A stretch of DNA of 64,000 nucleotides, taken from NCBI GenBank assembly GCA_964386225.1, contig CAYLTG010000001.1:935-64934 (forward strand), read 5' to 3'. This DNA is from an uncultured Bacteroidales bacterium (lineage in GTDB: Bacteria > Bacteroidota > Bacteroidia > Bacteroidales > JAADJA01). This document shows positions 2,598 to 49,410 of this stretch, one piece after another. Position 1 is the stretch's first letter. Each line of letters opens with the position of its first letter. Under the pieces are notes generated by a model, which was not told where the DNA came from, did no database searches, and saw only the letters and a program-made list of their open reading frames with translations. Position numbers and translations under genes: made by a program.

Positions 2598-2603
2598 GTC
2601 AGA

Positions 2604-4043: not shown

Positions 4044-4404
4044 TACCAGTGATTTAGGGTGTTTGAGAAAATGTCAATCAACTGTTCAGGTTTTATTTGA
4101 AGTCTTCAATTTGTCCTTATGCTCCGGTATGTGAAACGGGATGAGGTCTAGCAGGAGAGTTATTTCGAGTGCTTACCCGAAGCCATAGAACATTGTAAAT
4201 GTAAAGAAATTAGCCCATCAAACCAAAAATTACTCTGCCGGTCGTAAGCCTGGGTTGCATTTTGCAGTTTCAGAAAGCAGGGCTTTTGTCTCCTTCATCC
4301 CTCAAAAATTCCCGTTCACCACATTTTTCTTTCCTGCATCATTCTTTCCTGCTTGCTTTGGGCAGAATTTCAGAAATGGATTTTCAACGCATATCAGGAT
4401 TCAC

Positions 4405-5430: not shown

Positions 5431-5544
5431 CAATGAGTGAATGCGTAAATGAGTGAATAAGTGGTGAATTTTTACGGACTTTTTAAACAATCGCTTTGAA
5501 TGGGTGTTGACAGCACTGGCAAGTATAATCAAGAATATCAGATC

Positions 5545-5919: not shown

Positions 5920-6029
5920 TACAAATGCTTACCCCGGATCTACTCATATGAAAATTTCCGGCCCCCTGGGCCCAATTACGGGCGACTGAACGAAGTTCAG
6001 GCGACCAAATGACCTAAAAACACATACCT

Positions 6030-6947
6030 ATGAAGCAACTGATTATCCTGCTCACCGCCCTTGCATTCAGCGCGTTGCCTATCCTCGCCCAGGACGACCT
6101 GATGGACCTGCTGAACAGCGAAGAGCAGGCCGTTGATTACACCTATGCCACCTTCAAGACCTCGAGGATCATCAACTCACACTCGGTGGAGCAGCCCGCA
6201 TCAGGCGTCCTGATGTTCCTCATCCAGCACCGGTTCGGGCGGCTGAACACCGGATTCTATGAACTATTCGGGCTCGACCAGGCAACCATCCGGCTGGGCC
6301 TGGAATACGGCGTCACCGACCGGCTTAGCATCGGCGTGGGTCGCAGTTCCTACCAGAAGACCTATGACGGGTTCGTCAAGTACAAGTTGTTGCGGCAGAG
6401 TACGGGTGCCCGGAAAATGCCCGTGACACTCTCGTACTACGGCAGCATGACGCTCAATTCGCTGAAATGGGAAGACCTGGGTGTGGAAGATCGCGACAAC
6501 AATTTCAGCTCCCGCCTGGCCTATACCCACAAGTTGCTGCTGGCGCGCAAGTTCAGCAGCAGCATTTCCCTGCAGCTGATGCCGACCTACACCCACAAGA
6601 ACCTTGTTCCCACGGCCGACGATGCCAACGACATCTTCTCCATGGGCGTCGGCGGAAGGGTGAAGATCACGAACCGGATGTCGGTGAATGCGGAATATTA
6701 CTACACCCCGGAAAGCCAGATCTCCTATGAGTTCACGCAGCCCTTCTCCCTTGGCCTCGACCTGGAAACGGGGGGGCATGTCTTCCAGCTCCACTTCTCC
6801 AATGCCCAGGCCTTCTTCGACAGCGGCTACCTGACCGAGACCTCCGGAAAGTGGGGCGATGGCGACGTCTATTTCGGGTTCAACATCTCACGGGTCTTCA
6901 CGATCAAGAAACCGAAGGTGCCGGAAGGGGAATCCACGGGATATTGA
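6030..6947 (+). CDS. Small outer-membrane beta-barrel protein (family not assigned)
   Basis: 305 aa with signal peptide MKQLIILLTALAFSALPILAQ. The sequence has an alternating amphipathic strand pattern rich in Y/G/S/T. It is the last gene of the CxxCH lipoprotein operon and is followed by a terminator. Confidence 0.65.
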   Translation: MKQLIILLTALAFSALPILAQDDLMDLLNSEEQAVDYTYATFKTSRIINSHSVEQPASGVLMFLIQHRFGRLNTGFYELFGLDQATIRLGLEYGVTDRLSIGVGRSSYQKTYDGFVKYKLLRQSTGARKMPVTLSYYGSMTLNSLKWEDLGVEDRDNNFSSRLAYTHKLLLARKFSSSISLQLMPTYTHKNLVPTADDANDIFSMGVGGRVKITNRMSVNAEYYYTPESQISYEFTQPFSLGLDLETGGHVFQLHFSNAQAFFDSGYLTETSGKWGDGDVYFGFNISRVFTIKKPKVPEGESTGY

Positions 6948-7045: not shown

Positions 7046-7759
7046 ATGTTATCAACTATCCATATGGAATTGTTCAAGGCAAACGACAAGCTGTTCGACC
7101 TGGTTGATGCCAACCACAACCTGCTGCCCGTGCTGAACCGGTTCGGCATTCGTCCGGGGTTCAAGGACAGGACGGTGGCGGAGGTATGCGCCGAAAAGGA
7201 GATCAACAAGGACTTCTTCCTGGCGCTGGTGAATACTTACAACAACCCTGATTATTTCCCGGAGGAAGAGCTGCTTGGGTTTTCCCCGCTGCTGATCATC
7301 GATTACCTCCGCAAAACGCATGAGTATTACATTGGTTATTTCCTGCCCCGCCTGGAATGGCTGCTCGACAGGATGTCGGGCGATGACGGGGGCGACAACC
7401 GCGACTTGAGAACGATCCGGTCTTTCTATGAGAAATACAGGCAGGAGCTCCTGGCCCATATCCGTGATGAGGAGGAGAATGTATTCCCGGCTGTCGTGGA
7501 CTTCATCCGGAACAGCGCGGACCGGAAACTGGGCAATGCGGCCATTTCCTTTGAAAAGGAACATACCAACGTGGAAATGAAGCTGAGCGACCTCAAGCAC
7601 CTCATCGTCAAATATGTCAGGCCGGGATACGACGACCATGATTTTTATGAGTTCGTGTCGGCCCTCTACCGTTTTGAAAAGGACATCATCGACCATGCCC
7701 GCATCGAGGACAAGATCCTCGTGCCCCGGATCAAAGGGATCACACCCGCTGCCAGATGA
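7046..7759 (+). CDS. Hemerythrin-like domain protein (RIC/ScdA-like architecture)
   Basis: 237 aa. The N-terminal ~60-aa helical domain resembles ScdA_N/DUF1858. The C-terminal part has spaced H/E residues (HEYYIGYF, AHIRDEEENVF, EKEHTNVE, IDHARIEDKIL) as in hemerythrin-like cation-binding four-helix bundles. An alternative start is ATG 7064 (MELFK...). Confidence 0.65.
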   Translation: MLSTIHMELFKANDKLFDLVDANHNLLPVLNRFGIRPGFKDRTVAEVCAEKEINKDFFLALVNTYNNPDYFPEEELLGFSPLLIIDYLRKTHEYYIGYFLPRLEWLLDRMSGDDGGDNRDLRTIRSFYEKYRQELLAHIRDEEENVFPAVVDFIRNSADRKLGNAAISFEKEHTNVEMKLSDLKHLIVKYVRPGYDDHDFYEFVSALYRFEKDIIDHARIEDKILVPRIKGITPAAR

Positions 7760-8352
7760 AAAGGGAGATCTTCATCATACACCCGTCACCCATTGTCAGG
7801 AAAGGGTTGAACGCCGCCCTGCGTGGCTTTTTCAGCCACGACATCACGATGCTGCCGGATGCTTCTGAAATGAAGGCCTACAGGGAGATCAGGAATTCCA
7901 TCGTGATCGTGTTCATCGGTCCTGACCAGGACCGGGGGCACCTCACCCGCCTCCAGGCGAGTAACCGGCTTCACCTGGTGCAGATCACCGGATCGGCCGG
8001 AGAAGGGGAGGTGAACGGCGACAAGGACCCTTTCCTCAGCATCCACGCCCAGGATCATCAGATCCGTGAACTGCTCCACGGGCTTCTGGAAAGGGACTCC
8101 GCCGCTGTTGCCGACCGGCCGCAGGACGACGAACTGACGGTCCGGGAAAAGGAGGTGCTAGCCCTGGTAGCCATGGGCCACTCCAGCAAGGAGATCGCCG
8201 ACAAGCTGTTCATCAGCGTCCATACCGTGATCTCCCACAGGAAGAACATCACCGAGAAGCTGGGCATCAAGTCCATCTCCGGCCTTACCGTGTATGCCAT
8301 CCTCAACCGCGTCATCGACCCCGATACCCTGAATGCCGACCTGCTGATCTGA
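7756..8352 (+). CDS. LuxR/GerE-family transcriptional regulator with degenerate receiver-like N-terminus
   Basis: The C-terminal HTH is LTVREKEVLALVAMGHSSKEIADKLFISVHTVISHRKNITEKLGI. The start overlaps the upstream stop as ATGA (7756-7759). The N-terminal beta1 reads IFIIHPSP rather than an acidic DD pair. Confidence 0.8.
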   Translation: MKREIFIIHPSPIVRKGLNAALRGFFSHDITMLPDASEMKAYREIRNSIVIVFIGPDQDRGHLTRLQASNRLHLVQITGSAGEGEVNGDKDPFLSIHAQDHQIRELLHGLLERDSAAVADRPQDDELTVREKEVLALVAMGHSSKEIADKLFISVHTVISHRKNITEKLGIKSISGLTVYAILNRVIDPDTLNADLLI

Positions 8353-8435
8353 AAAATCCCAACAATTGGGGATTTCCATTCTGAATTAGTCCGGGTAGTT
8401 TTGCTTTGTTAAATGATGAACAAATCAAAACGATC

Positions 8436-9641
8436 ATGAGAACCGCAGCAACAATGGCCATGATCCTGCTGATATCTTTCGCGGGACAGGCACAGAATAC
8501 CGACAGCAGCAATAATGTATACAGGAACACCGCCGACCGGATGATGGTCAACGACAGCCGGCTCACCCTGGGTGGATACGGGGAGGTGCACTACAACCAA
8601 CCGGTGGGGGGTGCGACGCGCAGCCTGGGGACATTGGACGTCCACCGCGTGGTCCTGCTTTTCGGCTATAAATTCAATGCACGCACCCAATTTGTTACCG
8701 AGATCGAGTTCGAACATGTCAGTGAAGTGTATATTGAGCAGGCCTTCCTGCAGTACAAGATCACCAACGGGATCAGTTTCAGGGGCGGGTTGCTGCTGAT
8801 CCCCATGGGCATCATCAACGAATACCATGAGCCCACCACCTTTCAGGGCGTGGAACGGCCCCTGGTGGACAAGGTCATCGCACCCACCACCTGGCGCGAG
8901 ATCGGGCTGGGATTCAACGGCAACATCTTCCCCGCCTATCTGAAGTACCAGGTCTACCTTGTGAACGGGTTTGCGGGATACGACGGCGAGGCCAACCTGA
9001 ACGGCAGGAACGGACTGCGGGGAGGTCGCCAGAAAGGGGCCGAATCTTTTATCAGCGCGCCCAATCTCACGGGTAAGTTGGAATTCTACGGGGTCCGCGG
9101 CCTGAACGTCGGACTTTCGGGGTACTTCGGGAATACCCAGAGCAACATGTACAAGGGGATCGAAGTGAACGATGCCGAAGGAAAGACCAGGGCCGATTCT
9201 TCCGTGGTGGGCGTTTCCATGGTCGGGATCGATGCCAGGTATTCGATGAAAGGTTTCGAATTGAGGGGGCAGTACTATCACGTCGGCCTGTCGAACACCG
9301 GTCCCTACAACCAATTCACAGCCTCGGAAGAAGGCCCCAACGACCTGGGCAGCCGGATGTCGGGATATTACCTGGAGGCAGGCTACAACGTGTTCAGGCT
9401 GCTCCGTGGCGTGGGCACTGAATTGGTCCCCTTCGTCCGGATTGAGCAATACGATACACATGCCGCAGTGGAGGAGGGCACCACCCGGAATGACGGATAC
9501 AACAACACGATCATCACCACCGGCCTCAGCTGGCGGATGGCGCCGGGGGCTGTCCTCAAGGCTGACATGCAGTTCGTGAAACCCCGGTCGGCCGGCAATT
9601 ACAGCCAGGTATTCAGCGCAGGCCTCGGTTTCATGTTTTGA
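8436..9641 (+). CDS. Outer-membrane porin-like beta-barrel
   Basis: Start at ATG 8436 (MRTAATMAMILLISFAGQAQ signal); the ORF-track start is TTG 8406. It has an amphipathic strand pattern, and the C-terminus GLGFMF ends in an aromatic residue, typical of OM barrels. Confidence 0.7.
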   Translation: MRTAATMAMILLISFAGQAQNTDSSNNVYRNTADRMMVNDSRLTLGGYGEVHYNQPVGGATRSLGTLDVHRVVLLFGYKFNARTQFVTEIEFEHVSEVYIEQAFLQYKITNGISFRGGLLLIPMGIINEYHEPTTFQGVERPLVDKVIAPTTWREIGLGFNGNIFPAYLKYQVYLVNGFAGYDGEANLNGRNGLRGGRQKGAESFISAPNLTGKLEFYGVRGLNVGLSGYFGNTQSNMYKGIEVNDAEGKTRADSSVVGVSMVGIDARYSMKGFELRGQYYHVGLSNTGPYNQFTASEEGPNDLGSRMSGYYLEAGYNVFRLLRGVGTELVPFVRIEQYDTHAAVEEGTTRNDGYNNTIITTGLSWRMAPGAVLKADMQFVKPRSAGNYSQVFSAGLGFMF

Positions 9642-9653
9642 TACGCTAAAGCT

Positions 9654-10265
9654 ATGAACAGGATTGTTTCACTTCTTTTGGTATTGGCCTGGTCGACCTC
9701 GGTACCCGGCCAGCCCGGAATCGACTATGGCCACAAACGCTTGTTCAAGGCCATCGAGCGGGAATGGGGACTCACGGATCCAGCCTTGGAAGAGCAGGCG
9801 GTAGCCGATACTATTCCCCTGGCCGAACCGGTCCAGGGGAAGTTTTTCCGGATCCAGGAAAATGAATACGTAAGCAATGACCATTATATTTTCGTGGGGA
9901 GGGTGAACAGCTGCCGTGCCGGTGGCTGTTCCGTTTCCCTCGACGAGGAATTGTATGGGAATTCGGAGTATTTCGATTATTTCATCCTCTTCGGCCCGGG
10001 CCCCGCGGTGCAGGATGTTCAGGTCTTCAACTACCAGGCATCCTATGGCCAGGAGGTGTCGGCACGCGGTTGGCTGAGGCAATTCCAGGGGTACGACGGT
10101 AAATCCTACCTCCAGGTCGGAAAGGACATCGATGCCATCTCCGGGGCCACCATTTCGGTGTATGCCATTACCCAGGATGTCATCCAGAAAACAAGGCTCC
10201 TCTGCGAAATGACGTGCCCCGGGTGTGCAAAAAAAATCGCCGCTTCCAGCGGAAACGGCGACTGA
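9654..10265 (+). CDS. Secreted FMN-binding-domain protein
   Basis: Signal peptide MNRIVSLLLVLAWSTSVPGQP. The motif DAISGATIS (10131-10157) matches the FMN_bind [ST]GA[TS] flavinylation motif of NqrC/RnfG-type domains. It starts 12 nt after the porin gene. Confidence 0.7.
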   Translation: MNRIVSLLLVLAWSTSVPGQPGIDYGHKRLFKAIEREWGLTDPALEEQAVADTIPLAEPVQGKFFRIQENEYVSNDHYIFVGRVNSCRAGGCSVSLDEELYGNSEYFDYFILFGPGPAVQDVQVFNYQASYGQEVSARGWLRQFQGYDGKSYLQVGKDIDAISGATISVYAITQDVIQKTRLLCEMTCPGCAKKIAASSGNGD

Positions 10266-10280: not shown

Positions 10281-10484
10281 TTACTTTTTTTTCGTGGTGC
10301 TCAATCCGAAGGGCAGATAAAGCGGGCAGAAGCTGACCAGGCTTGTGAGCAGGAATACGATGGCCAGGATCAGGAGGATGAGTCCCAGCGTTCCTGTGAT
10401 CACGTTCGTGAAATAGAGGACTGCGATGACCACAGCCAGGATGATGCGTACGATCCGGTCAGTGGATCCCATGTTTGCTTTCAT
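10281..10484 (-). CDS. DUF2892 (YgaP-like transmembrane domain) small membrane protein
   Basis: 67 aa. GSTDRIVRIILAVVI...two TM helices...FCPLY matches the characteristic DUF2892 pattern. Confidence 0.8.
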   Translation of the reverse strand: MKANMGSTDRIVRIILAVVIAVLYFTNVITGTLGLILLILAIVFLLTSLVSFCPLYLPFGLSTTKKK

Positions 10485-10546
10485 AATGAGGTATGATTTA
10501 GTTAATGAATAATTTTGACTCGTGATTTTCTACCCGAAGATAGCAA

Positions 10547-11104
10547 TTATTTCTTGAACTCTTCCAGCGCGACTTCAACAGTCACTTCGATCTCTTCGGC
10601 GATGTTATTGACCACCGTTTTGGGGATCTTGATGTCATGATCGGCGGGTTTGACAATAAATTTGCAATTGCCTTTCACCGCCCCGTCGGTCACGGTGAAA
10701 GTGCCGGACTCCTTGACCTCCCGGTCCACACCATGGATCGTCAGGATCCCTTCCACGATGGCCCGGTATTCTCCGGAAGTTCCGAAATCGATCTGGTCGA
10801 GGTTCGTCACTTTGCCTTTGAAGGTTGCATTGGGGAACTTCTCCGACTCCACGTAGTTCTCGTTGAAATGCTCCTGCATGAGGGCTTTTTCGAACTCGAA
10901 CGAACGCATGAGGACCTTGAAGACGAAATCGCCGGATTCCGAATCCAGGGCGCTGTTCACCTGGCGATTATGAGCTTCGATGGTCTCGATGGGGGTTTCG
11001 GAGTAGAACTTGATATACCCGTTCTTTGTGATGTACTTCTGCGAGAAGCCGGCCAAAAAGAACAGGAGCAGGGCTGCGGTTAGCATTGTTTGTTTCATTT
11101 CCAT
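10547..11104 (-). CDS. YceI-family (polyisoprenoid-binding lipocalin-like) periplasmic protein
   Basis: 185 aa with a signal peptide. The YceI-like core is ...IKFYSETPIETIEA...EHFNENYVESEKFPNATFKG...LTIHGV.... It is a paralog of the gene at 17213-17785. Confidence 0.85.
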   Translation of the reverse strand: MEMKQTMLTAALLLFFLAGFSQKYITKNGYIKFYSETPIETIEAHNRQVNSALDSESGDFVFKVLMRSFEFEKALMQEHFNENYVESEKFPNATFKGKVTNLDQIDFGTSGEYRAIVEGILTIHGVDREVKESGTFTVTDGAVKGNCKFIVKPADHDIKIPKTVVNNIAEEIEVTVEVALEEFKK

Positions 11105-11123
11105 CAGTTTTTTTGGTTAAGGG

Positions 11124-11154
11124 CCGGGAAGGCGGAGATCCCCCGCCTTCCCGG
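11124..11154 (-). other. Perfect 12-bp GC-rich hairpin between the T9SS gene and yceI-like gene
   Basis: CCGGGAAGGCGG (11124-11135) and CCGCCTTCCCGG (11143-11154) flank a 7-nt loop. No U-tract follows on the transcribed strand, so it may be an intra-operon RNA structure or weak terminator. Confidence 0.4.
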
Positions 11155-11159
11155 GTTGC

Positions 11160-12953
11160 CTATAATTTAATGATCGTTTTCGAAATTACCAGCCCGTTGT
11201 CGAGTTTCAGTGAGAGGTAATAGATCCCTGGTATGGCGTCACTCATGTCCACGCTGGCATTTTGCGTTCCGCCCCGCACAGTGAAATTACTGACCATCCT
11301 GCCGGTTGAAGAGTAAAGGCTGGCCTCGGTCACGCGCAGGTCATCCAGTTCGGCCCGCAGGGTGAATTTGTCGGTCACCGGGTTGGGGTACACATGCACC
11401 TGGCTTGCCAGGATGTTCTCCCGGATGCCGGTCAGTGGCCACTGGATGTCCGTGAAATTGGTGTTATGGGTGAAATCCAGCTCGCTGTCGCCGGCCACGC
11501 CGTTCAGTTCAAGCCTCCAGGCATGGTCAGCGGGGGGCGGGTCGTACACGCCGTTGCCGTTATGATCGGCATAGAAGTCCACGAAGTAATCCTCACCCAG
11601 TTCCAGCCCGATGGCAAGGGCGTCATAATCAACGAGCACGATGCTGTCGAGCCGCATCCTGCCGGCCTCCTGCATGGTAGCCTGGTTCACCAGCCGCAGT
11701 TCGAAGAGCTGGCCAAGGTGCGGGGTCATCCCCATGGCATGGAGCGTGAACCGGTACTCCCAGCCGATGTCGGTGAAGTTGGTATTGTGAATGAACTCGT
11801 CGTCCTCATCGCCCTCCACATCGGTGAGCTCCAGCCTCCAGGCATGGTCGGCAGGGGGCGCATCGTACACGCCGTTGCCGTTATGATCGGCCCAGAAATC
11901 CACATAATAGGTTTCCCCGGTGCTGATGAATGGCATATGCACGTCGAACTCCGCCGAGGGGATCGCGTCCACCTTTGCGCGGCCGGCTTCTTTCATGGTG
12001 GCCATGTCCACGAGGCGCACCTCTAATTTTTGCCCGATGTGCGGGGTCATGCCGCTGAACTCCAGCGTGTACATGTGCTTGAAGTTGATCTCCGAGAAGT
12101 TGAGGTTATGCTGGAAATCCACGGCGGAAAATCCCATGAAGTCGTTCACGGTGAGCCTCCAGGCATGGTCGGTGGGGATGCCGTCGTACCATCCGTTGTC
12201 ATTGTGGTCGGCGTAGAAATCGATCCAGTAGCTCTTTCCGTCCTCGGTGTTGGAAAAGGAAATGTCGAAGTCGGGGCCCGGCACCTCATCCAAAGCGAGG
12301 CGTTCCACCTCCGTGAGGTTTTCCTTGTCGATGAGCCTGGCTTCCATCAGCTGGCCCACGTGCGGGGTCATGCCGGTCAGGTTGACGGTGATCCCGGTCT
12401 GTACGCCGGAGGATTCGGCCACCGGAAGGGTGGAGGTGTAGATGACGTCCCCCTGGTTGTTGCCGTTCCCGTTGGCGGCGTTGAAGGCGGCATAGAAGGT
12501 GACCTCGCCGGTGCCTGCTGCGGGGGCGGTCCAGTCGAACGACCAGGATTTGGAATCGCCCGTGGGGGTGGTGCCTGCGTTCTTGTGCGTGATGGCGTTG
12601 TTGCTGTTGATCAGCATGGTCTCGGTCGCATTGGTGACCACCAGGGTGCCGACCTTGCTGGCGCCCGCATCCTCCGAGGTCAGTTCGAACCCGAATTTCC
12701 CGACTCCGGGATGCGTACCCGTGGCGGTGATGGTATAGGTCTGACCCGGCTCATAGCCGTCGGCAGGGATGTCGGAGGTGATCCAGCCCGCCTGCGCCGT
12801 GGCTGTTCCGCTATGACACTGGGTGCAGGTGGTGCCGCCGTCGCCGGGGCTGCCGGTCTTGCCGCCCGGTGAGCCGGAGGAATACATCAATTCGGAGGTC
12901 AGCAGGAAAAACAGGCCCGCCACAGTAAAGAGAAGGTAAATTGCTTTTTTCAT
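11160..12953 (-). CDS. T9SS-sorted surface protein: N-terminal CxxCH domain plus three ~105-aa repeats
   Basis: 597 aa with a signal peptide. GGTTCTQCHSG carries the CxxCH at 12813-12827. Three repeats follow, each with GMTPH[VIL]GQ ... ADHN[GD]NG[VW]YD..P[AT]DHAWRL. The T9SS CTD is VYPNPVTDKFTL...GIYYLSLKL...IKL. Confidence 0.8.
   Translation of the reverse strand: MKKAIYLLFTVAGLFFLLTSELMYSSGSPGGKTGSPGDGGTTCTQCHSGTATAQAGWITSDIPADGYEPGQTYTITATGTHPGVGKFGFELTSEDAGASKVGTLVVTNATETMLINSNNAITHKNAGTTPTGDSKSWSFDWTAPAAGTGEVTFYAAFNAANGNGNNQGDVIYTSTLPVAESSGVQTGITVNLTGMTPHVGQLMEARLIDKENLTEVERLALDEVPGPDFDISFSNTEDGKSYWIDFYADHNDNGWYDGIPTDHAWRLTVNDFMGFSAVDFQHNLNFSEINFKHMYTLEFSGMTPHIGQKLEVRLVDMATMKEAGRAKVDAIPSAEFDVHMPFISTGETYYVDFWADHNGNGVYDAPPADHAWRLELTDVEGDEDDEFIHNTNFTDIGWEYRFTLHAMGMTPHLGQLFELRLVNQATMQEAGRMRLDSIVLVDYDALAIGLELGEDYFVDFYADHNGNGVYDPPPADHAWRLELNGVAGDSELDFTHNTNFTDIQWPLTGIRENILASQVHVYPNPVTDKFTLRAELDDLRVTEASLYSSTGRMVSNFTVRGGTQNASVDMSDAIPGIYYLSLKLDNGLVISKTIIKL
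11433..12392 (-). repeat. Three tandem intragenic coding repeats (~315 nt each)
   Basis: Protein repeats span roughly aa 188-294, 295-400 and 401-507. Repeats 2 and 3 share an identical 29-nt stretch, TCGTACACGCCGTTGCCGTTATGATCGGC (11863-11891 and 11542-11570). Confidence 0.8.
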
Positions 12954-12972
12954 ATCAGTAGAATTTTAGTTG

Positions 12973-13410
12973 TTATTCATTGACGATCGAACATTTCTCC
13001 AGGATCACATCCGTACCATTGAACCCTGTGCAATAACCCTTGAGGGTGGCGCTCGCATCCTTTAAAAGGGCGCTGGCCGCCCGGCTGTGGTTGTCGAGCA
13101 TGGTCAGCCGGATCCCTTCGTCCCCGAACATCCCTTCGCTCAACGCAAAGACCACGATGGTGAGGGAGTCGGGCGTTTCCACGGCTGTTACCCGGCCGGT
13201 CACCTGGAGCACTTTCCCGTTGTAGGTGTTTTCTGCCTCCTTCCGGTTGCCGGTGTAGTGGGAGAACAGCTCCTCGGCCGTGATGCGGTACTCCGCCTCC
13301 GCCTTTTCATAGTCGGTGTGTGGCTTGTTGTACACGAAAACATATCCCAGAATGCCTGCTGCGATCCCGAGGAATACCAGTACTGCGATGATCTTGATCC
13401 ACTTGTTCAT
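12973..13410 (-). CDS. Membrane-anchored OB-fold protein (tRNA_anti-like family pattern)
   Basis: MNKWIKIIAVLVFLGIAAGILGYVFVYNKP is an N-terminal TM anchor. It is followed by ...AEELFSHYTGNRKEAENTYNGKVLQVTGRV.... An alternative upstream ATG lies at 13431. Confidence 0.7.
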   Translation of the reverse strand: MNKWIKIIAVLVFLGIAAGILGYVFVYNKPHTDYEKAEAEYRITAEELFSHYTGNRKEAENTYNGKVLQVTGRVTAVETPDSLTIVVFALSEGMFGDEGIRLTMLDNHSRAASALLKDASATLKGYCTGFNGTDVILEKCSIVNE

Positions 13411-13473
13411 GGCATGGTCGATTTGTTCCATGCAAAGGAACGTGAATGCGACAGGGTGCGGAAATAAAACTCC

Positions 13474-13506
13474 GTGAACGGGAATTATGGAATGGTGAAC
13501 GGGAAT
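13474..13506 (-). promoter_or_regulatory. Candidate LytTR operator: ATTCCCGTTCAC x2, 21-bp period
   Basis: Exact 12-mer copies lie at 13495-13506 and 13474-13485 (read on the minus strand) with a 9-bp spacer. They sit between the LytTR regulator gene and the downstream gene. I confirmed the sequence against the ORF-track translation ...YSRSPFHNSRSR.... Confidence 0.55.
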
Positions 13507-13524
13507 ATGTGAGCAATTGCCGTG

Positions 13525-14283
13525 TCAGCCGGCCTGTCCGTCAAGCCATTTCTTGAAGCTTCCCGAGCGCTCTGTGCTGGCTACGGTCTCGAAATCGCAG
13601 GGCGGATCCAGCTCGACCTTCACCCGCGATTTGGACCAGGCGTACATCTCCCTGATCGCGCGGATGTTGATGATGATCTGCCTGTTGATGCGGTAGTAAC
13701 GCTCCGGGTCAAGCATGCCCTCCAGACGGTCGAGGCTGTGGTCCGATGGGTATTCCATGCCGTCGAAGGTCTTGAAGAAATTGTTTCCCTCCAGGGTATA
13801 GAAATAGGCGATCTCATCCGTCGGTACCACCTTGATCTTCTGTCCGTAGCGCACCATGAACCGCTTCTGGTAGCTGCGGGGCGTCAGGACCCCCGCCAGG
13901 GCCCCGTAATCGGGCTTCCTGTCCTGCTGCGAGATCCTTTTCAGTTTATCCAGGCTGGCCTTCAACTGGTCGCGCGACACCGGCTTCAGCAGGTAGTCGA
14001 TGCTGTTCACCCGGAAGGCATCGATGGCGTACTGGTCGTATGCCGTGGTGAAGATCACGGGGATATCCATGTGGACGGCCCTGTATATCTCGAAGCAGCT
14101 GCCATCGGCCAGGTGGATGTCCTGGAAGATCAGGTCGGGGTGGGGGTGGGAGGTCAGCCAGGCGATGCTGGATTCGACGCTGTCAAGGATCTCCACCACC
14201 TCGATGCCGGGATCCAGTTCGCCGATCAGTTTTTGCAGCCGCTGGGCCGTGGCGTGTTCGTCTTCGATGATGAGCGCTTTCAT
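13525..14283 (-). CDS. LytTR-family two-component response regulator
   Basis: The receiver is MKALIIEDE...DLIFQDIHLADG.... The C-terminal LytTR DNA-binding domain is ...IKVVPTDEIAYFYTLEGNNFF...YYRINRQIIINI.... I prefer ATG 14283 over the ORF-track TTG 14292. Confidence 0.9.
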   Translation of the reverse strand: MKALIIEDEHATAQRLQKLIGELDPGIEVVEILDSVESSIAWLTSHPHPDLIFQDIHLADGSCFEIYRAVHMDIPVIFTTAYDQYAIDAFRVNSIDYLLKPVSRDQLKASLDKLKRISQQDRKPDYGALAGVLTPRSYQKRFMVRYGQKIKVVPTDEIAYFYTLEGNNFFKTFDGMEYPSDHSLDRLEGMLDPERYYRINRQIIINIRAIREMYAWSKSRVKVELDPPCDFETVASTERSGSFKKWLDGQAG

Positions 14284-14288
14284 GAAAT

Positions 14289-17216
14289 TCAAGGGATAAA
14301 AGGAAGTCCGACGGTGAAGGCATGTTCCGTTTTGATGACCATAACTTCTTCATCGGTGAGCAGTTTGTACCTGCTGATGATGTTGTTGATGCCGATCCCG
14401 GTGGAAGGTGTATCCTGCAATTTTTCCTGGATGTTGTTCTCCACAAAAATACGATTTTCGCCGGGTTTTGAAAAGATTTTGATCCTTAAGGGTTTGCCCC
14501 TGGATGCCACATTGTGCTTGATCGCATTCTCGATGAGCAGCTGCAAGGTGAGGGGCGGGATCTTCGTCCCCCTGAAGGCGGAGGGTTCCTCCATTTCAAC
14601 CACCAGGTTGCTGCCATACCTCTTTTTCTGCAGGTTGATGTAGTTGCCGGCGATCTCGTACTCACGGTCCAGGCTCACCAGGTCCTGGTCCTTGTATTCC
14701 AGGATGATCCTGAAGAGCATGGAAAGTTCTTCCACGTAGTTGACAGCAGCCTTTGTGTCATCTTCGATGAGTGCGATGAGGGTGCTGAAGCTGTTGAACA
14801 GGAAGTGGGGGTTGATCTGGCTCTTCAGGTTCTCGAACTGGAACCTGATCTTTTCCTGGATCAATTCCTCCTTTCGCCTAACCTGCCGGATCCTGGCCGT
14901 AAGGATCATGGCGGTCAGCCCGCCTGCCGCCAGCACCAGCAGGATGTAAAACCAGATCGAGGAATGGAATGGCTTGCGGATGGTGAAGGTGTACGCTTCT
15001 TCCCCGGCAGCGCTGAAATTTCCGTAAAGGCCCGACCTGACGCGGAAAGTGTATTCACCCGGCCGCAGGTCAGAATAGATCACCTGGTTGTTGCGTGTCC
15101 GTATCCAGCCCAGGTCATGTCCGTCAAGCTTCACCTGGTATTCCACCTGGTCGGGTTGCTGGTACCAGAAACCCGAATAGTTGAACGAGAGGTGGTTCTC
15201 GTTGTGGTTAAACTGCTTGCTGCCCGAATGGTTGAACGGCTCCAGGAACAGGGCGACCCCTTCCAGTTTGGTCCGCGGCTGTTCCCACAACCCTTTTTCC
15301 AGGGGCCGGATCCGGATAATGCCTTTGGCCGTCCCTATCCATAGTGCATGGTGCGAATCGCGGGCGAGGGTGTTGAGGTCGGGGTTGATGAAGGCGATCC
15401 CCGCATTTTCCTCGAAATGCCGGATGGCCCCGGTGGATATGTTCATCACATCGATGCCGTTCTCGTGGGCCATCACCAGTTCGCCCTTGCTGCTGAGTAT
15501 CCCGCTGATGGTCACTTCCCGCCGTCCGGCCTCGCGGGAAATCCGGGAATAGCTTGTGCCGTCGTATTTATGGAGTCCTTCTCCGGCTATGTTGAGCCAG
15601 GTGTTGCCGGCGTCATCGCGAGCGACCGAATATACCACCTTGTCGGCCATTTCACCCCCCGGGTCCAGGTGGAGGAATTCCCCGTCCCGGTAAAGATGCA
15701 CGCCGCTGCCGTCGGTCGCGAAATAGGGTGTTCCGTCGTCCGGGAGGAATACCTGGTAGATGTAATTGTTCACGAGCCCTTCCTCCGATCCGAAATTCTG
15801 AAAAGTTGGCACGTGGTCCGGTTCTTCCATGTTTTTATCCATGATGCACCGTGATGCGCCGCCCAGTGTGCCGAACCAGATCTCCTGCCTGTTCCCGGTA
15901 ATGGAGAGCACATTGCCGTTCACCAGCCCGTCGCGCTCGGTGATGACTACCTGCCGGCCGGTCCCGGGGTCCATCCTGACCAGCCCGCTGCCGAAGGTCC
16001 CCACCCAGATGAAGCCGAGGTAGTCGCGGTAGATGCTCATCACCTTCTGCTGGTCCAGGTCGATGATCAGCGGGTGATGTACCGCGGCTGCCCCGGGCTG
16101 CCCCGGGTCATAGGAGTAGATGCCCCGGTCATCGGCGAACCACAGCTGGTCGTCGCTGTCGACGGTGAGGGCATGGATGTTGTTCAGCTCCATCCCGCCG
16201 ATCGACTGGAAGAACTCGATCCTGTTCCCGAACGAAAGATACAATTCGTTGCCGGAGAGCAGCCAGATGTTGCCCTCCTGGTCCCTAAGCATGGACTTGA
16301 TCCTTCCCATGGTTTGTTCCCCGACATCCCGGTAATGGGTCACGGTGCCGGTTTCGGGGCTGTATTCCATGATGCCCCTGTCCGATGTGGCGATCCAAAT
16401 CCTGTCCTCCAGGATCACCATGTCGCGCACCGCACCGAACTGCCATTCCCGCAGGTTTTCCGGCACGTGGAAGGTGCCGCTGCGTTGGTCATACCTGCAG
16501 ATGCCCCGGTCATACATCCCGATCCAGATGCTGCCGCTGTCACCGGCGGCGAGGCATTGCACGATAAAATCGGGCAGGCCCTCGTCGATGCTCAGCTTCG
16601 TAACTTTCCATGCGCCACCCTCGGATCCCGCCACATTGATCCCGTTGTCGGTGCCCATCCAGATCCTGTTGCCGGGACCCGTGACGATGGAGTAGATGTA
16701 ATTGTCGGAAAGGCCTGACTCGCTGTTCATCTGGACGATGGCCGTATCCCGGCTGACGAATGCGCCGCTGCCGTAGGTGGCCATCCACACGGTCCCCGGC
16801 TCTCCCTCGACGAAGCCCGTGATCCGGCTGACATTCTCCCTGCCGGCTGACAGCACGGTGTCGAAAACCTCGAATCCGTCATACGTCAGGACGCCGCCAT
16901 TTTCAAAACCGATCCAGAGGTTGCCGGAATGGTCGGTGAACAGGGCGGTTGGTCCCTCGTCCCTGAAGTTGCCGGGGAGCACCACCGGTGTGAAGGATAG
17001 TCCGTCGAAGGTGTACAACCCTGCGGCCGTCCCCAGCCAGATCATGCCGTCGTGATCCTGGTGTATGCAGTTCAGGTTGCCCTCCCCGACTTTCGTGTCG
17101 ATGGGGACAGTCCGGAACCAGGCCTGGGCCCGCGCGTCAGGTGCCGCCAGCAGCACCGGAAGGATCAGGGTCGCAACCGCGGCAATCAGGGTCAACAGGA
17201 AGGGGCGCCCGGTCAT
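14289..17216 (-). CDS. Sensor histidine kinase with periplasmic two-component-regulator propeller/Y_Y_Y domain and LytS/YehU-type kinase core
   Basis: 975 aa with a signal or TM segment. Many propeller repeats are present (G.IW[IL]GT..G[LI]). The Y_Y_Y-like segment is YQVKLDGHDLGWIRT...PGEYTFRVRS and the TM segment is IWFYILLVLAAGGLTAMILTA. The His_kinase box is QINPHFLFNSFSTLIALI, followed by a HATPase region. Confidence 0.9.
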   Translation of the reverse strand: MTGRPFLLTLIAAVATLILPVLLAAPDARAQAWFRTVPIDTKVGEGNLNCIHQDHDGMIWLGTAAGLYTFDGLSFTPVVLPGNFRDEGPTALFTDHSGNLWIGFENGGVLTYDGFEVFDTVLSAGRENVSRITGFVEGEPGTVWMATYGSGAFVSRDTAIVQMNSESGLSDNYIYSIVTGPGNRIWMGTDNGINVAGSEGGAWKVTKLSIDEGLPDFIVQCLAAGDSGSIWIGMYDRGICRYDQRSGTFHVPENLREWQFGAVRDMVILEDRIWIATSDRGIMEYSPETGTVTHYRDVGEQTMGRIKSMLRDQEGNIWLLSGNELYLSFGNRIEFFQSIGGMELNNIHALTVDSDDQLWFADDRGIYSYDPGQPGAAAVHHPLIIDLDQQKVMSIYRDYLGFIWVGTFGSGLVRMDPGTGRQVVITERDGLVNGNVLSITGNRQEIWFGTLGGASRCIMDKNMEEPDHVPTFQNFGSEEGLVNNYIYQVFLPDDGTPYFATDGSGVHLYRDGEFLHLDPGGEMADKVVYSVARDDAGNTWLNIAGEGLHKYDGTSYSRISREAGRREVTISGILSSKGELVMAHENGIDVMNISTGAIRHFEENAGIAFINPDLNTLARDSHHALWIGTAKGIIRIRPLEKGLWEQPRTKLEGVALFLEPFNHSGSKQFNHNENHLSFNYSGFWYQQPDQVEYQVKLDGHDLGWIRTRNNQVIYSDLRPGEYTFRVRSGLYGNFSAAGEEAYTFTIRKPFHSSIWFYILLVLAAGGLTAMILTARIRQVRRKEELIQEKIRFQFENLKSQINPHFLFNSFSTLIALIEDDTKAAVNYVEELSMLFRIILEYKDQDLVSLDREYEIAGNYINLQKKRYGSNLVVEMEEPSAFRGTKIPPLTLQLLIENAIKHNVASRGKPLRIKIFSKPGENRIFVENNIQEKLQDTPSTGIGINNIISRYKLLTDEEVMVIKTEHAFTVGLPFIP

Positions 17217-17785
17217 GGGGTGGATGGTGTTTTGGTCAGTGTCACTTCAATGCTCACGGCCACCTCTTCGGCGATCTTCTGGTAGACGAGCTTCGGAATG
17301 GTGATGTTGTGGTCGTCGAGGCTGACCATGAACCTGCTGGTGGCCGTGAACTGGTCCGGCCCGATGTCGAGCATGCATTTGATGATCCTTTCTTTTTTGA
17401 CACCGTGGATGTCAAGGATGCCCTTGGCCCGGACCTCGAGCCGACCCGGGACGCTGAGGTCGACCTTTTCGATGATCCTCCCGCTGAAAGAGGCGTTGGG
17501 ATATTTCTCCACCTCGATGTAGTTCTCGTAAAAATGTTCCTGCTGCAAGGGTGAATTGAAACCGGTAAGGGTTTGCGTCCCCACCTGGAAGGCAAAGGTG
17601 CCCTTGGAGGGATCGAACAGGCCCCTGAGGGCATCCGACTCTGCTGCGATGAGTTCCAGCGGGGCGTCGGAAACGAAGGAAACATGCCCGTTCTCGGCCC
17701 TGTATAGTACGGCGGACCCCTCATCCTGTCCCAACAGGCCGAGGGCAAGGCAAAGGAACGACAAGCTGATGATCATCCTGTTCAC
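17213..17785 (-). CDS. YceI-family periplasmic protein, translationally coupled to the sensor kinase
   Basis: 190 aa with a GTG start and a signal peptide. The YceI-like core is EHFYENYIEVEKYPNASFSG...ILDIHGV. Its stop overlaps the kinase ATG as ATGA (17213-17216). Confidence 0.85.
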   Translation of the reverse strand: MNRMIISLSFLCLALGLLGQDEGSAVLYRAENGHVSFVSDAPLELIAAESDALRGLFDPSKGTFAFQVGTQTLTGFNSPLQQEHFYENYIEVEKYPNASFSGRIIEKVDLSVPGRLEVRAKGILDIHGVKKERIIKCMLDIGPDQFTATSRFMVSLDDHNITIPKLVYQKIAEEVAVSIEVTLTKTPSTP

Positions 17786-17881: not shown

Positions 17882-19216
17882 ATGAAAGCTATCCGGTTTG
17901 TATTCGTGTTTTGCCTTCTTCCTTTCGTTGCTGATTGCCAGGATTATCCGGCGGAGGTGCTCCGCTCGGGCCCGATGGTGGGTTATTCCACCATGAAGGA
18001 GGTGATGATCTGGGTCCAGACCAGGTACCCGGCCCGTGTGCACCTCACATGGAGCGAAAAGGGCAGCCCCGGGAAGGAACAACGGTCTGAGGATGTCTTG
18101 TCAGGCCCTGACCATTTCTTTGTGGTGAAATTGCCGGCGGCCGTCGAGCCGGGAAAGGAATATGCCTATGCTGTCTGGGTCGATGGCGAAAAGTTGGATT
18201 TCCCCTATGCCCTCGAGTTCAGGAGCCAGGAATTGTGGCAATGGAGGCACGACCCCCCCGGTTTCAAGTTCGTCATCGGCAGCTGCAATTACGACAACGA
18301 ACCTTTGCTCGACAGGCCGGGCACCCCTTACGGGGCCGACCACTTCATCTTCGATTCCATGCTGAAGAAAGACCCCGATTTCATGGTATGGATGGGTGAT
18401 AACAACTACCTCCGGGAAGCCGATTGGAACTCCCGCACAGGCATCTTTCACCGCTACACCTGCAACCGCTCCATGCCGGAGCTGCAGCCCTTTTTAGGAT
18501 CGGTCCACCATTATGCCACATGGGACGACCATGACTATGGCCCCAACAACTCCGACCGGAGCTACTGGATGAAGGACGTGACAATGGAAGCCTTCAGGCT
18601 TTTCTGGGCCAATCCCAATTACGGCCCCGGCGGTGGCGTCAGCGGCACCTTTTTCTGGGGCGACGTTCAGTTTTTCCTGCTCGACAACCGCTGGTTCAGG
18701 ACACCCAACAACCTGCGGTCGGACGACCGGGTGATGTTCGGGGAGCAACAGTTGCAATGGCTCATCGACGCGCTGAGCACAAGCCAGGCGCCCTTCAAGT
18801 TCGTGGTGACGGGCGGCCAGGTCCTTAACCCGGTGGTGGAGCCCTGGACCGAAAATTTTGCCAAATACCCGGAGGAACAGAAGAAGCTGTTTGATGCCAT
18901 CCGGGACAATGCCATCACCGGGGTCTTCTTCCTCACCGGCGACCGGCACATGGCCGAGTTGGCGAAGATGGACAGGGAGGGGACCTACCCGTTCTACGAC
19001 CTCACCGTGTCGCCCCTTACCGCCGGGCCCGACAACGGACGCCGCAAGGACGAGGCCAATGCCTTCCGCATGCCCGGAACCTATTACGGGCAGCGCAATT
19101 TTGCACTGCTGGAGGTCTCCGGGGCCCGCAGGGACAGGAAATTGAAGATCACGCTGTGCGACAGCCATGGAAAAGAAGTGTGGTCGAAGACCATCCACGA
19201 GGATGAGTTGAAATAG
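17882..19216 (+). CDS. PhoD-like alkaline phosphatase/metallophosphatase
   Basis: Start at ATG 17882 (MKAIRFVFVFCLLPFVADCQ signal). Motifs WMGDNNYL, ATWDDHDYGPNN and FLTGDRHMAE are typical of the PhoD family. Confidence 0.8.
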   Translation: MKAIRFVFVFCLLPFVADCQDYPAEVLRSGPMVGYSTMKEVMIWVQTRYPARVHLTWSEKGSPGKEQRSEDVLSGPDHFFVVKLPAAVEPGKEYAYAVWVDGEKLDFPYALEFRSQELWQWRHDPPGFKFVIGSCNYDNEPLLDRPGTPYGADHFIFDSMLKKDPDFMVWMGDNNYLREADWNSRTGIFHRYTCNRSMPELQPFLGSVHHYATWDDHDYGPNNSDRSYWMKDVTMEAFRLFWANPNYGPGGGVSGTFFWGDVQFFLLDNRWFRTPNNLRSDDRVMFGEQQLQWLIDALSTSQAPFKFVVTGGQVLNPVVEPWTENFAKYPEEQKKLFDAIRDNAITGVFFLTGDRHMAELAKMDREGTYPFYDLTVSPLTAGPDNGRRKDEANAFRMPGTYYGQRNFALLEVSGARRDRKLKITLCDSHGKEVWSKTIHEDELK

Positions 19217-19222: not shown

Positions 19223-19648
19223 TCAGCGGGCGTCGTAGTCAATGGTCTTGAGCAGTTCGCCGTCCTGGTCCCAGAAGGACCATGTCCCGGTCCTTTCATC
19301 GTCCTTCAGGTGCCCTTCATAGTACTTCTGGCCGTTCTCGTAATATACCGTTTTCAGCCCGTTCTCCCTGCCGTTCCGGTATTCCCCGGTGCTCCACAAC
19401 TGACCGTTGGCATGCCAGGCCTTCCACGTCCCTTCCCGCTCCCCGTTTTTGTAGGCGCCTTCAATGTAGAGGGTCCCGTCGCGGTAGAGCTGTTTTTCAC
19501 GGACGAGAACGGTCTTCTCCTTGTCCCTGTAGAACTTCACTATCTTGGGCGAGCCGTCGGGGTAGCTCTCCTCGACGAATTCATAACTTTTCGGCGAGCA
19601 GGCCAGGACAAACAGGAGCGGTATGATCCAGGGGAGAAACTTTTTCAT
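19223..19648 (-). CDS. MORN-repeat (YwqK-like) lipoprotein
   Basis: Lipobox MKKFLPWIIPLLFVLACS. It has repeated G.Y.NG.[RK][ET]G.W motifs (EGAYKNGEREGTWKAWH, GEYRNGRENG, EGHLKDDERTGTW). Confidence 0.8.
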   Translation of the reverse strand: MKKFLPWIIPLLFVLACSPKSYEFVEESYPDGSPKIVKFYRDKEKTVLVREKQLYRDGTLYIEGAYKNGEREGTWKAWHANGQLWSTGEYRNGRENGLKTVYYENGQKYYEGHLKDDERTGTWSFWDQDGELLKTIDYDAR

Positions 19649-19651
19649 AGG

Positions 19652-21007
19652 TTATCGTTGAAACAGGAGACGCTGGCCGCTGACCCCTTCGTGGAACACC
19701 CCCCGGTCGTAGACCAGTTTCCCGTTCACCCAGGTGTGTGTCACGGTGGAGCTGAACCGGGTCCCCTCGAAGGGCGACCAGCCGCATTTGTAAAGGACCT
19801 TGTCGCGGGTCACCTCCTGGGGCTGCTCCAGGTCGACCGCCACCAGGTCGGCATGGTACCCCGGACGAAGGAATCCCCTGTCCGCCACCCGGAAGCAGGT
19901 GGCCGGAGCATGGCACATCTTCTCGACCACCTTTTCAAGGGTGATCTTTCCCTGGTGGTGGAACTCCAGCATCGCCAGCAGGGCATGTTGTACCAGCGGC
20001 CCGCCGGATGGGGCTTTCATGTAAGGATTGTCTTTTTCTTCCAGCGTATGGGGCGCATGGTCCGTCGCGATCACATCCAGCTTGTCGGTCAGCAGCCCGT
20101 CGAAAAGCGCCTCCTGGTCGGCCCGCGACTTCACGGCGGGGTTCCATTTTATCAGGCTCCCCTTTTCCTCATAATCCTGGTTGCTGAACCACAGGTGATG
20201 GACGCACACCTCGGCGGTGATCCGCTTCTTTTCAAGGGGCATGTCGTTGGAGAACAGGTCCAGTTCCCTGGCCGTGGACAGGTGAAGGATGTGCAGGCGC
20301 GTATTGTACAGTTTGGCCAGGCTCACCGCCAGTTTGGAGCTTTTGTAGCAAGCCTCGTGGCTCCTGATCAGGGGGTGGGCTTCCATTGGGATGTCGTCGC
20401 CGTATTTGTTCCTGAAGATCTCCAGGTTGCTCCGGATGGTGGTCTCATCCTCGCAGTGGACGGCGATGAGCGATTTGGACCTGGAGAAGATCTTGTTGAG
20501 GGTGTCGACGTTGTCAACCAGCATGTTGCCCGTAGAGGCGCCCATGAATACCTTCACGCCGCAGACGGTGCGGGGATCGGTCTTCAGGATCTCGTCGATG
20601 TTGTCGTTGGAGGCGCCCATGTAAAAACTGTAATTGGCCAGCGATGTCCTGGAAGCGATGTCGTATTTTTCTTCCAGGAGCTCCTGCGTGAGGGTGTTGG
20701 GCACGGTGTTGGGCATCTCCATGAAGGAGGTGATGCCGCCGGCCACCGCCGCCCTGCTTTCCGTGTAGATGTCGGCCTTATGGGTCAGCCCTGGCTCACG
20801 GAAATGGACCTGGTCGTCGATCACGCCGGGGATCAGCAGCTTGCCGCCGAGGTCGATCGTGTGGATGCCTTCGAATGCAGCACCGGACCAGCCTTCCGGA
20901 TTGCGGCTTACTGCCTCGATCAGGCCGTCGCTGACAAGCAAGGATCCGGGGAACTGTTCCCCTTCATTGACGATTCGGGCATTGACCAGCTGGAATATCT
21001 TGTTCAT
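19652..21007 (-). CDS. pyrC: Dihydroorotase-type cyclic amidohydrolase
   Basis: 451 aa. LIPGVIDDQVHFREPG, a metal-binding-like motif, and HCEDE...ATDHAPH are typical of long dihydroorotase/allantoinase-class enzymes. Confidence 0.8.
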   Translation of the reverse strand: MNKIFQLVNARIVNEGEQFPGSLLVSDGLIEAVSRNPEGWSGAAFEGIHTIDLGGKLLIPGVIDDQVHFREPGLTHKADIYTESRAAVAGGITSFMEMPNTVPNTLTQELLEEKYDIASRTSLANYSFYMGASNDNIDEILKTDPRTVCGVKVFMGASTGNMLVDNVDTLNKIFSRSKSLIAVHCEDETTIRSNLEIFRNKYGDDIPMEAHPLIRSHEACYKSSKLAVSLAKLYNTRLHILHLSTARELDLFSNDMPLEKKRITAEVCVHHLWFSNQDYEEKGSLIKWNPAVKSRADQEALFDGLLTDKLDVIATDHAPHTLEEKDNPYMKAPSGGPLVQHALLAMLEFHHQGKITLEKVVEKMCHAPATCFRVADRGFLRPGYHADLVAVDLEQPQEVTRDKVLYKCGWSPFEGTRFSSTVTHTWVNGKLVYDRGVFHEGVSGQRLLFQR

Positions 21008-49387: not shown

Positions 49388-49410
49388 AATAAAATTTGGT
49401 TCCTGATGGA

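Follow-up and report, generated by a model that had tools for sequence, protein, structure and literature searches.

The present analysis concerns a cluster of seven co-directional open reading frames (ORFs) located on the minus strand at positions 10281-17785 of a 64,000-nucleotide (nt) stretch of contig CAYLTG010000001.1 from an uncultured Bacteroidales bacterium (the whole of this stretch is referred to as the window). The first gene of the cluster, here named yceI-1, encodes a YceI-fold lipocalin and overlaps the gene of a sensor histidine kinase with a beta-propeller/Y_Y_Y periplasmic domain, which is in turn followed by the gene of a LytTR-type response regulator. A sequence-only reading of the window had proposed that this YceI protein partners the kinase as a periplasmic co-sensor, and the comparative data presented below lend support to such a partnership through the conserved linkage of the two genes, a pairing that is independent of the transmitter type, and the absence of the YceI gene outside one sensor lineage. 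The seven ORFs and their domain assignments, as given in that reading, were borne out by the ORF coordinates and by matches to Pfam families, and the features of the cluster are the following (coordinates refer to the window):

17213-17776, minus strand: yceI-1, starting at an ATG (an alternative GTG start lies at 17785); YceI-fold lipocalin of the sensor-linked clade (PF04264)
17213-17216, minus strand: ATGA in which the yceI-1 stop and the kinase start overlap, read directly from the sequence
14289-17216, minus strand: sensor histidine kinase of 975 residues (Reg_prop, Y_Y_Y, His_kinase PF06580)
13525-14283, minus strand: response regulator with receiver and LytTR domains (PF00072 and PF04397)
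13474-13506, minus strand: two copies of ATTCCCGTTCAC at a 21-nt period in front of the OB-fold gene, the predicted operator for the LytTR regulator
12973-13431, minus strand: membrane-anchored oligonucleotide/oligosaccharide-binding (OB)-fold (tRNA_anti-like) protein with an N-terminal anchor, its probable start (MNKW) being at 13410 (PF12869)
11160-12953, minus strand: type IX secretion system (T9SS) cargo with an N-terminal Reeler/choice-of-anchor V domain, in which a CTQCH motif is located, and a Por_Secre_tail (Pfam)
11124-11154, minus strand: stable hairpin without a U-tract, identified by folding, between the T9SS gene and yceI-2
10547-11104, minus strand: yceI-2, output-type YceI paralogue (PF04264)
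10281-10484, minus strand: YgaP-like_TM protein with two transmembrane segments (formerly DUF2892; PF11127)
10235-10263, minus strand: intrinsic terminator ending the cluster, a 13-bp stem followed by a T-run

The overlap between yceI-1 and the kinase gene reads ...ACC CCA TGA, the kinase beginning with ATG ACC GGG in the -1 frame. The kinase stop codon (14289-14291) and the regulator ATG (at 14283) are separated by a 5-nt gap, and the hairpin between the T9SS gene and yceI-2 consists of a perfect 12-bp stem (-30 kcal/mol, z = -3.2). These three features, as well as a repeat in the gap between the regulator and OB-fold genes, had been pointed out beforehand and are real, the repeat being made up of two exact copies of ATTCCCGTTCAC at 13474-13485 and 13495-13506, 21 nt apart. 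The proposal of a seven-gene unit, by contrast, stands with regard to the co-directional cluster only: a single operon was rejected in view of the operator present in the regulator-OB gap and of a block conservation limited to the first three genes. Since the operator-like repeat occupies this gap, the cluster probably comprises at least two transcription units.

For the comparison with related loci, one genome per species was scanned with an alignment of YceI-1 orthologues, which yielded 80 loci out of 214 stretches encoding a relative, and the downstream genes in these loci were located by tblastn using the window proteins. The loci span Bacteroidales, Saprospiraceae/Lewinellaceae, Cytophagales, Lentimicrobiaceae and Sphingobacteriaceae, and include at least one cultured carrier of the gene pair, Phaeodactylibacter luteus KCTC 42180 (L067); Pontibacter sp. 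H259 is likewise a cultured carrier. A full-length propeller/Y_Y_Y kinase gene lies directly downstream of yceI-1, on the same strand, in 76 of the 77 testable loci; the yceI-kinase adjacency, for which the sequence-only reading had suggested a survey, is hence kept in several orders of the Bacteroidota. Three of the four loci without a kinase are contig ends, leaving L080 as the sole true orphan. The LytTR regulator gene then follows the kinase gene in 69 of the 80 loci scanned, and yceI-1, kinase and regulator are the only genes kept as a block everywhere. The full gene order is retained in the closest relatives only, either including the choice-of-anchor V gene (L007, L012) or without it (L001-L005, L008, L009, L027). 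The loci nearest to that of the window come from metagenome-assembled genomes of Bacteroidales. At the orphan locus L080 (9161-10546) a STAS-domain protein is encoded upstream of the YceI-1-like gene, and a glycosyltransferase and a resistance-nodulation-division (RND) efflux pump are encoded downstream; STAS-domain proteins are the usual substrate of SpoIIE-type phosphatases.

The junction between yceI-1 and the kinase gene could be compared in 74 loci, and comprises the same 4-nt overlap (19 loci), other overlaps (13), gaps of 0-15 nt (23), gaps of 16-60 nt (3) or gaps of more than 60 nt (16). Translational coupling of the two genes, as had been suggested from the ATGA overlap in the window, would accordingly be the usual arrangement, with 55 of 74 junctions overlapping or not exceeding 15 nt, but not a universal one.

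The partnership can be examined independently of the LytTR regulator by employing the periplasmic domain alone as query, a search which retrieved the orthologous kinases together with homologues of 28-33% identity that carry other cytoplasmic modules. In all seven sensor homologues looked up (at least 28% identity) a YceI-1-type gene is located immediately upstream on the same strand, even though the transmitters are of various kinds: a SpoIIE/PP2C phosphatase (P0175, P0206), a PAS-SpoIIE module (P0233), a LytS-type module (P0237), a weak HisKA match only (P0181), or a tail of approximately 110 residues in which no domain was recognised (P0189, P0210). The upstream YceI genes of these swapped-transmitter sensors overlap the sensor gene or are separated from it by 4-8 nt (L081-L083, L085, L088-L090), and their products are 41-49% identical to YceI-1 versus 30-39% to YceI-2, and bear the YceI-1 signature (SDAPLELI, GFNSxLQxEHF, IIE, RAKG and ERII). 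In YceI-1 of the window, the mature form of which spans residues 20-190, the residues specific to the clade are D40-E44 (DAPLE), G75-S78 (GFNS), R119-G122 (RAKG) and E132-I134 (ERI). No YceI gene was present at either of two more distant propeller sensors (26% identity or less), namely P0238, which has the same LytS/LytTR architecture as the window kinase, and P0240, which is a cyclase. In addition, a metagenome scan was seeded with the SpoIIE-type sensors. Most of the proteins obtained were of the propeller-SpoIIE type but did not belong to the lineage, and the scan therefore serves as a negative control: a YceI gene was detected in one of 42 testable propeller-SpoIIE loci, and this sole locus (L091) encodes the protein closest to the window sensor domain (327 bits, the next best being 259). 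By these comparisons the YceI-1 association belongs to one periplasmic sensor-domain lineage, whatever the transmitter. Such a lineage-bound and transmitter-independent association is the pattern expected of a sensor-domain partner, and argues against a mere effector of a LytTR regulon.

Three of the YceI-linked sensors, in L082 (5001-7673), L083 (5001-7679) and L085 (4001-6643), are short proteins of approximately 880-892 residues, of which approximately 110 are cytoplasmic with a weak HisKA match or none. In L082 the sensor gene is adjoined by a convergent gene for a TPR-HisKA-HATPase kinase, and in L081 a DUF5777 gene follows the YceI/SpoIIE-sensor pair.

With respect to the protein itself, YceI-1 matches PF04264 over residues 58-182 at 40.8 bits (cutoff 23.7), while no NCBIfam model was matched and a profile search against PDB sequences gave nothing at E <= 0.01. 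YceI-1 is therefore a divergent YceI member, and its fold had to be settled by an AlphaFold2 model and a Foldseek search. This model (mean predicted local distance difference test, pLDDT, 80.9) retains the eight-stranded lipocalin-like beta-barrel, and the first 21 Foldseek matches in the PDB, which comprise every match with E <= 0.001, are YceI structures (14-20% identity). Among them are 3Q34, 5IXG/5IXH, 2X32, 1WUB, 3HPE and 1Y0G, the proteins matched including BcnA/BcnB, the Saccharophagus polyisoprenoid-binding domain, TT1927b, HP1286 and Escherichia coli YceI. The template modelling (TM) scores are mostly 0.65-0.79, and 0.51-0.56 for the Campylobacter jejuni YceI entries. The model thus confirms, at the level of a structure prediction, that YceI-1 has the YceI lipocalin fold.

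Both YceI-1 and the kinase start with an export signal that is directly followed by a Gln; among the YceI-1 orthologues this Gln is invariant. A Gln following the signal fits the 'Q-rule' of the Bacteroidetes for substrates of signal peptidase I. YceI-1 and YceI-2 are 37% identical (E 1e-36) and have in common the motif quoted in the sequence-only reading, which had rightly called them paralogues. In a comparison of 62 complete triads, conservation is highest for YceI-1, with a mean pairwise identity of 56%, followed by the regulator (54%), the cytoplasmic part of the kinase (50%) and the sensor domain (36%).

The kinase consists of a signal/transmembrane segment (residues 5-27), a double-propeller plus Y_Y_Y domain (residues 31-751, which hydropathy places in the periplasm), a transmembrane segment (residues 753-776) and a LytS-type His_kinase/ATPase region (residues 777-975). 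Pfam scores are 97 bits for Reg_prop and 27.2 bits for Y_Y_Y, and the periplasmic domain matches the structures of Bacteroides hybrid sensors 4A2L (E 2e-31), 3V9F and 3OTT. The His_kinase PF06580 transmitter and the receiver/LytTR regulator make up a LytS/LytTR pair that is kept in 69 loci.

Outside the cluster, a second group of genes relevant to this regulator was found on the opposite strand of the window:

4288-4319, plus strand: weaker predicted operator, an exact ATTCCCGTTCAC (4308-4319) and a half-site, approximately 87 nt before the cytochrome gene
4405-5430, plus strand: cytM, lipoprotein with PSCyt1/cbb3-type haem c motifs (Pfam), predicted output
5500-5919, plus strand: cytS, small PSCyt1-like cytochrome c (Pfam)
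6030-6947, plus strand: DUF5777 outer-membrane beta-barrel (PF19089, 326 bits)

The exact copy of ATTCCCGTTCAC at 4308-4319 is the third in the window, and its accompanying half-site, located 21 nt upstream, contains three mismatches; by simple arithmetic 0.008 exact occurrences of this 12-mer would be expected by chance in the window, counting both strands. A de novo search for repeats with a 21-nt period in the related loci gave the same motif. When generalised as the family-wide dimer TTCCNGTTCR-N11-TTCCNGTTCR, it yields 86 matches at a period of 21 as opposed to 3-25 at periods of 12-31, and the intergenic matches amount to 56 in 47 loci versus one at each control period, the intergenic share of the scanned sequence being 13%. 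The predicted sites are located 29-116 nt upstream of genes for the OB-fold protein, for a cytochrome c lipoprotein with multiple haem motifs and for second YceI proteins, and in Lentimicrobiaceae-type loci also precede a gene for a lipoprotein of 151 residues. LytTR proteins bind repeats of 9-11 nt with spacers of 11-13 nt (PMC4847170), a rule to which the 10-nt half-site and 11-nt spacer conform. The TTCCNGTTCR dimer is thus predicted to be the operator of the LytTR regulator. In Saprospiraceae/Lewinellaceae this predicted operator precedes yceI-1 itself, and the system would therefore be autoregulated there.

The genes behind these sites recur in varying combinations. Approximately half of the loci carry the set cytM-cytS-OB-YceI-2-DUF5777 beside the triad, in varying order; in the window this set is split, with OB, choice-of-anchor V, YceI-2 and DUF2892 genes on the minus strand and cytM, cytS and DUF5777 on the plus strand (4405-6947). 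Orthologues of the OB-fold gene occur in 25 loci (mostly behind the operator), cytM orthologues adjoin the triad in 17 (often behind the operator), and cytS and DUF5777 genes are found in 20 and 17 loci, respectively, while a DUF2892 gene follows yceI-2 in 11. The choice-of-anchor V T9SS gene, present in three loci only, is a lineage-specific insertion in the output operon. Secondary YceI genes represent a separate clade situated downstream of the predicted operator, the 8 of 30 that were aligned encoding proteins 63-70% identical to YceI-2 and 31-37% to YceI-1. The earlier suggestion that the second YceI is an output of the system is consequently supported by this separate clade and by operons lying behind a conserved LytTR-type direct repeat.

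Besides two CxxCH motifs (CLSCH and CYGCH), cytM (4405-5430) encodes one CX4CH motif (CGTTGCH), which is also seen in the cytM orthologue of L040 (CAKSGCH); if functional, CX4CH would be an unusual haem-attachment motif. Nothing on DUF5777 was found in the literature.

Several further genes in the window were noted. Between the cytochrome operon and the cluster (7046-10265, plus strand) are encoded a RIC/ScdA-like hemerythrin (7046-7759), a GerE/LuxR-type regulator with an atypical N-terminal domain (7756-8352), a porin-like protein of 401 residues without Pfam match (8436-9641) and a secreted FMN_bind protein (9654-10265). In L007, L008, L009, L026, L047, L055 and L059 the triad is likewise accompanied by subsets of these four genes, which may take part in the same response to stress. 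Upstream of yceI-1, beyond a divergent PhoD-like phosphatase gene (17882-19216), genes for a MORN_2-repeat lipoprotein and a dihydroorotase (19223-21007, minus strand) are syntenic with the triad in the Bacteroidales-type loci L001-L009, which is probably plain synteny. Two further T9SS cargo proteins with a Por_Secre_tail, one of which has DUF5122 propeller repeats, are encoded at 480-4043 (minus strand), and a TPR-HisKA-HATPase-receiver hybrid kinase at 45213-47984 (minus strand). Finally, a 1.4-kb segment of low G+C content (48000-49521; 29-39% versus approximately 55% elsewhere) abuts tRNA-Met (49449-49521, minus strand), contains an ORF of 231 residues without Pfam match (48409-49104), and may be the remnant of an integrated element.

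The locus can be pictured as an envelope-sensing system of three components together with the regulon of this system. YceI-1 would be exported to the periplasm, where it would partner the double-propeller/Y_Y_Y domain of the kinase, possibly at a 1:1 stoichiometry. Its lipocalin barrel would be loaded with a hydrophobic compound, which by the example of other YceI proteins would be an isoprenoid, a quinone or an oxidised lipid, and YceI-1 would dock on the sensor and switch it. Next, the LytS-type transmitter would phosphorylate the LytTR regulator, which would bind the two 10-bp direct repeats TTCCNGTTCR at their 21-bp period and turn on two operons, one for the OB-fold anchor, the choice-of-anchor V haem protein, YceI-2 and DUF2892, and another for the two c-type cytochromes and the DUF5777 barrel. 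By analogy with characterised YceI proteins, a predicted regulon combining a lipocalin with cytochromes points to a hydrophobic signal of the envelope, related to redox, which the system would both detect and respond to.

On the sequence evidence, the most likely role of YceI-1 is that of a periplasmic protein dedicated to the sensor domain as its partner, and the more specific proposal that it is a ligand-carrying co-receptor of this domain is given a probability of about 0.6. Pairwise distances of YceI-1 correlate more closely with the distances of the sensor domain (partial r 0.31) than with those of the regulator (0.19) or of the cytoplasmic kinase part (0.09), which points to a partnership in a manner that is suggestive only, this signal being weak and confounded by phylogeny; the approximately 70 YceI-1/sensor pairs are too few for residue-level covariation. 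Other observations likewise weigh against the proposed partnership or loosen it. In L080 no sensor is encoded within 10 kb of the YceI-1-like gene; 16 of the 74 junctions span 67-384 nt, so that coupling of yceI-1 to the kinase gene is not obligatory; no fusion of YceI with the sensor (YceI-Reg_prop) occurs among the homologues listed; the operator is a computational prediction; and for the related loci, genes were called with a simple ORF caller and proteins grouped by BLAST clustering.

The alternative that fares best is that YceI-1 acts as an accessory modulator without a signal ligand, being either an inhibitor or scaffold that is titrated under stress (CpxP, which acts on CpxA, is an example of an inhibitor titrated away under stress) or a factor that folds or stabilises the propeller. 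The linkage, domain-swap and specificity data would fit any obligate periplasmic partner, and the unusual conservation of YceI-1 is expected for a protein-protein interface. The present data do not separate this alternative from the co-receptor proposal. It is nonetheless judged rather unlikely, given that the YceI fold forms a ligand tunnel in every solved member (PMC9113575) and that the barrel architecture is kept in the YceI-1 model; the ligands held by solved YceI proteins are isoprenoids (octaprenyl compounds) or ubiquinone-8 (PMC9113575).

More unlikely still is a co-expressed effector, in which case YceI-1 would be a lipocalin with a housekeeping function in the same stress pathway, its gene staying beside that of the sensor for the sake of co-regulation, and would have no part in signal perception. 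Other YceI proteins are indeed effectors, BcnA capturing antibiotics and acting in lipid-radical detoxification (PMC9113575), and the operator preceding yceI-1 in Saprospiraceae would make this gene itself a regulated one. Yet an effector would be expected to go with the regulon rather than with the sensor domain, and YceI-1 stays with the sensor domain where the output is a PP2C module or a short tail without a LytTR regulator, the effector position is already taken by the separate paralogue clade of YceI-2, and the constant upstream order with its stop/start overlaps is typical of subunits. A chance or lineage-specific juxtaposition of propeller kinase and YceI genes, both of which are common in the phylum, is refuted by the locus survey and has a negligible likelihood in view of the 76 of 77 loci over several orders, the seven of seven swapped-output homologues and the sharp clade boundary in the controls.

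Beyond the co-receptor proposal, a wider interpretation is put forward tentatively, as possible rather than probable when taken as a whole. According to this interpretation, YceI-1 and the propeller/Y_Y_Y domain would together make up a portable receptor cassette of two proteins, responding to a hydrophobic signal that derives from the membrane, for instance the redox state of quinones or peroxidised lipid. In the course of evolution this cassette would have been combined with no fewer than four kinds of transmitter (LytS-type kinase, HisKA stub, PP2C phosphatase and PAS-PP2C), and it would induce a lipocalin/cytochrome c/beta-barrel defence. The cassette would then represent a new, lipocalin-dependent class of sensor by which bacteria of the Fibrobacteres-Chlorobi-Bacteroidetes (FCB) group monitor envelope-lipid damage or redox.

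Few receptors of the Bacteroidota are as numerous as the propeller/Y_Y_Y sensors, for which we know of no signals outside glycan sensing; similarly, to our knowledge only effector roles have been described for the widespread YceI lipocalins. A conserved lipocalin-sensor cassette, if true, would give YceI proteins a role in signalling, would show how a periplasmic sensor can read hydrophobic, membrane-derived molecules, and would delimit a regulon that is open to testing and has a clear operator, its members being two c-type cytochromes, the OB-fold anchor, YceI-2 and DUF5777. The natural transmitter swaps constitute ready-made experimental controls. We know of no function for the members of this regulon (the cytochromes, the OB-fold anchor, the second YceI and the DUF5777 barrel).

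A partnership between YceI and a kinase or a propeller protein was not found in the searchable literature, in agreement with the sequence-only reading, which knew of none. The closest functional parallel is offered by kinases that depend on a binding protein (LuxP-LuxQ, TorT-TorS, ChvE-VirA and PahP-PahK), where a soluble periplasmic binding protein encoded beside the kinase presents the signal, as is proposed here, and where the PahP-PahK pair indicates that such a scheme is workable for hydrophobic polycyclic aromatic hydrocarbons (PMC10570129). Conservation of the partner gene beside the sensor gene is equally seen here (76 of 77 loci and all seven swapped-output homologues). In those systems, however, the partner has the bilobed fold of substrate-binding proteins, whereas the present one has a YceI barrel that would dock on a different type of receiver, namely a double beta-propeller/Y_Y_Y domain.

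That a small lipocalin-like envelope domain suffices to activate a histidine kinase is known from NlpE-CpxA (PMC6538781). NlpE, however, is a lipoprotein related to Blc that is not encoded with cpxA, reports lipoprotein trafficking, and has no sequence relation to YceI-1. It also holds an OB-fold domain, whereas here the OB-fold protein is a separate gene heading the output operon; the lipocalin-fold (17213-17776) and OB-fold (12973-13410) genes of this one unit may, by analogy, parallel the two NlpE domains (PMC6538781).

With regard to outputs, BcnA works with a cytochrome b561 (LcoA) to detoxify lipid peroxyl radicals (PMC9113575), and YceI-2 with the cytochromes of the regulon looks analogous to this BcnA/YceI-LcoA arrangement, in which the lipocalin gene is linked to a cytochrome b561 gene located upstream of it, ligands are isoprenoids or quinones, and the envelope is protected. 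The cytochromes here differ in being c-type lipoproteins accompanied by a DUF5777 barrel, and the annotated neighbours at 480-21007 include no cytochrome b561. For BcnA no sensor partnership is described (the terms 'sensor' and 'two-component' are absent from PMC9113575).

The sensor domain itself is homologous to the Reg_prop double propeller plus Y_Y_Y of the Bacteroides hybrid sensors (BT4663; 4A2L/4A2M, 3V9F, 3OTT). These sensors recognise glycan fragments directly, are not known to require a partner protein, and have HisKA/receiver/AraC modules fused to the periplasmic domain. In the lineage described here, in contrast, a YceI gene always precedes the sensor gene and the transmitters are LytS-type, SpoIIE or other; the window kinase lacks the fused HisKA/receiver/AraC architecture, having a PF06580 transmitter and a regulator encoded by a separate gene. 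In this respect it corresponds to the LytS/LytTR systems (BtsS/BtsR, YpdA/YpdB, AgrC/AgrA, AlgR), which combine PF06580 and LytTR proteins with two direct repeats approximately 21 bp apart, as is the case here, and the CCGTTC core of the predicted operator resembles AlgR sites. It is the sensing part that differs, since there is no multi-pass sensing domain of the 5TMR-LYT/7TM type, the two hydrophobic segments of the kinase instead flanking a 720-residue periplasmic domain that would act with a separate partner. Taken against these known systems, the present one is rated as having three components, its partner being of a new type and its sensor cassette portable.

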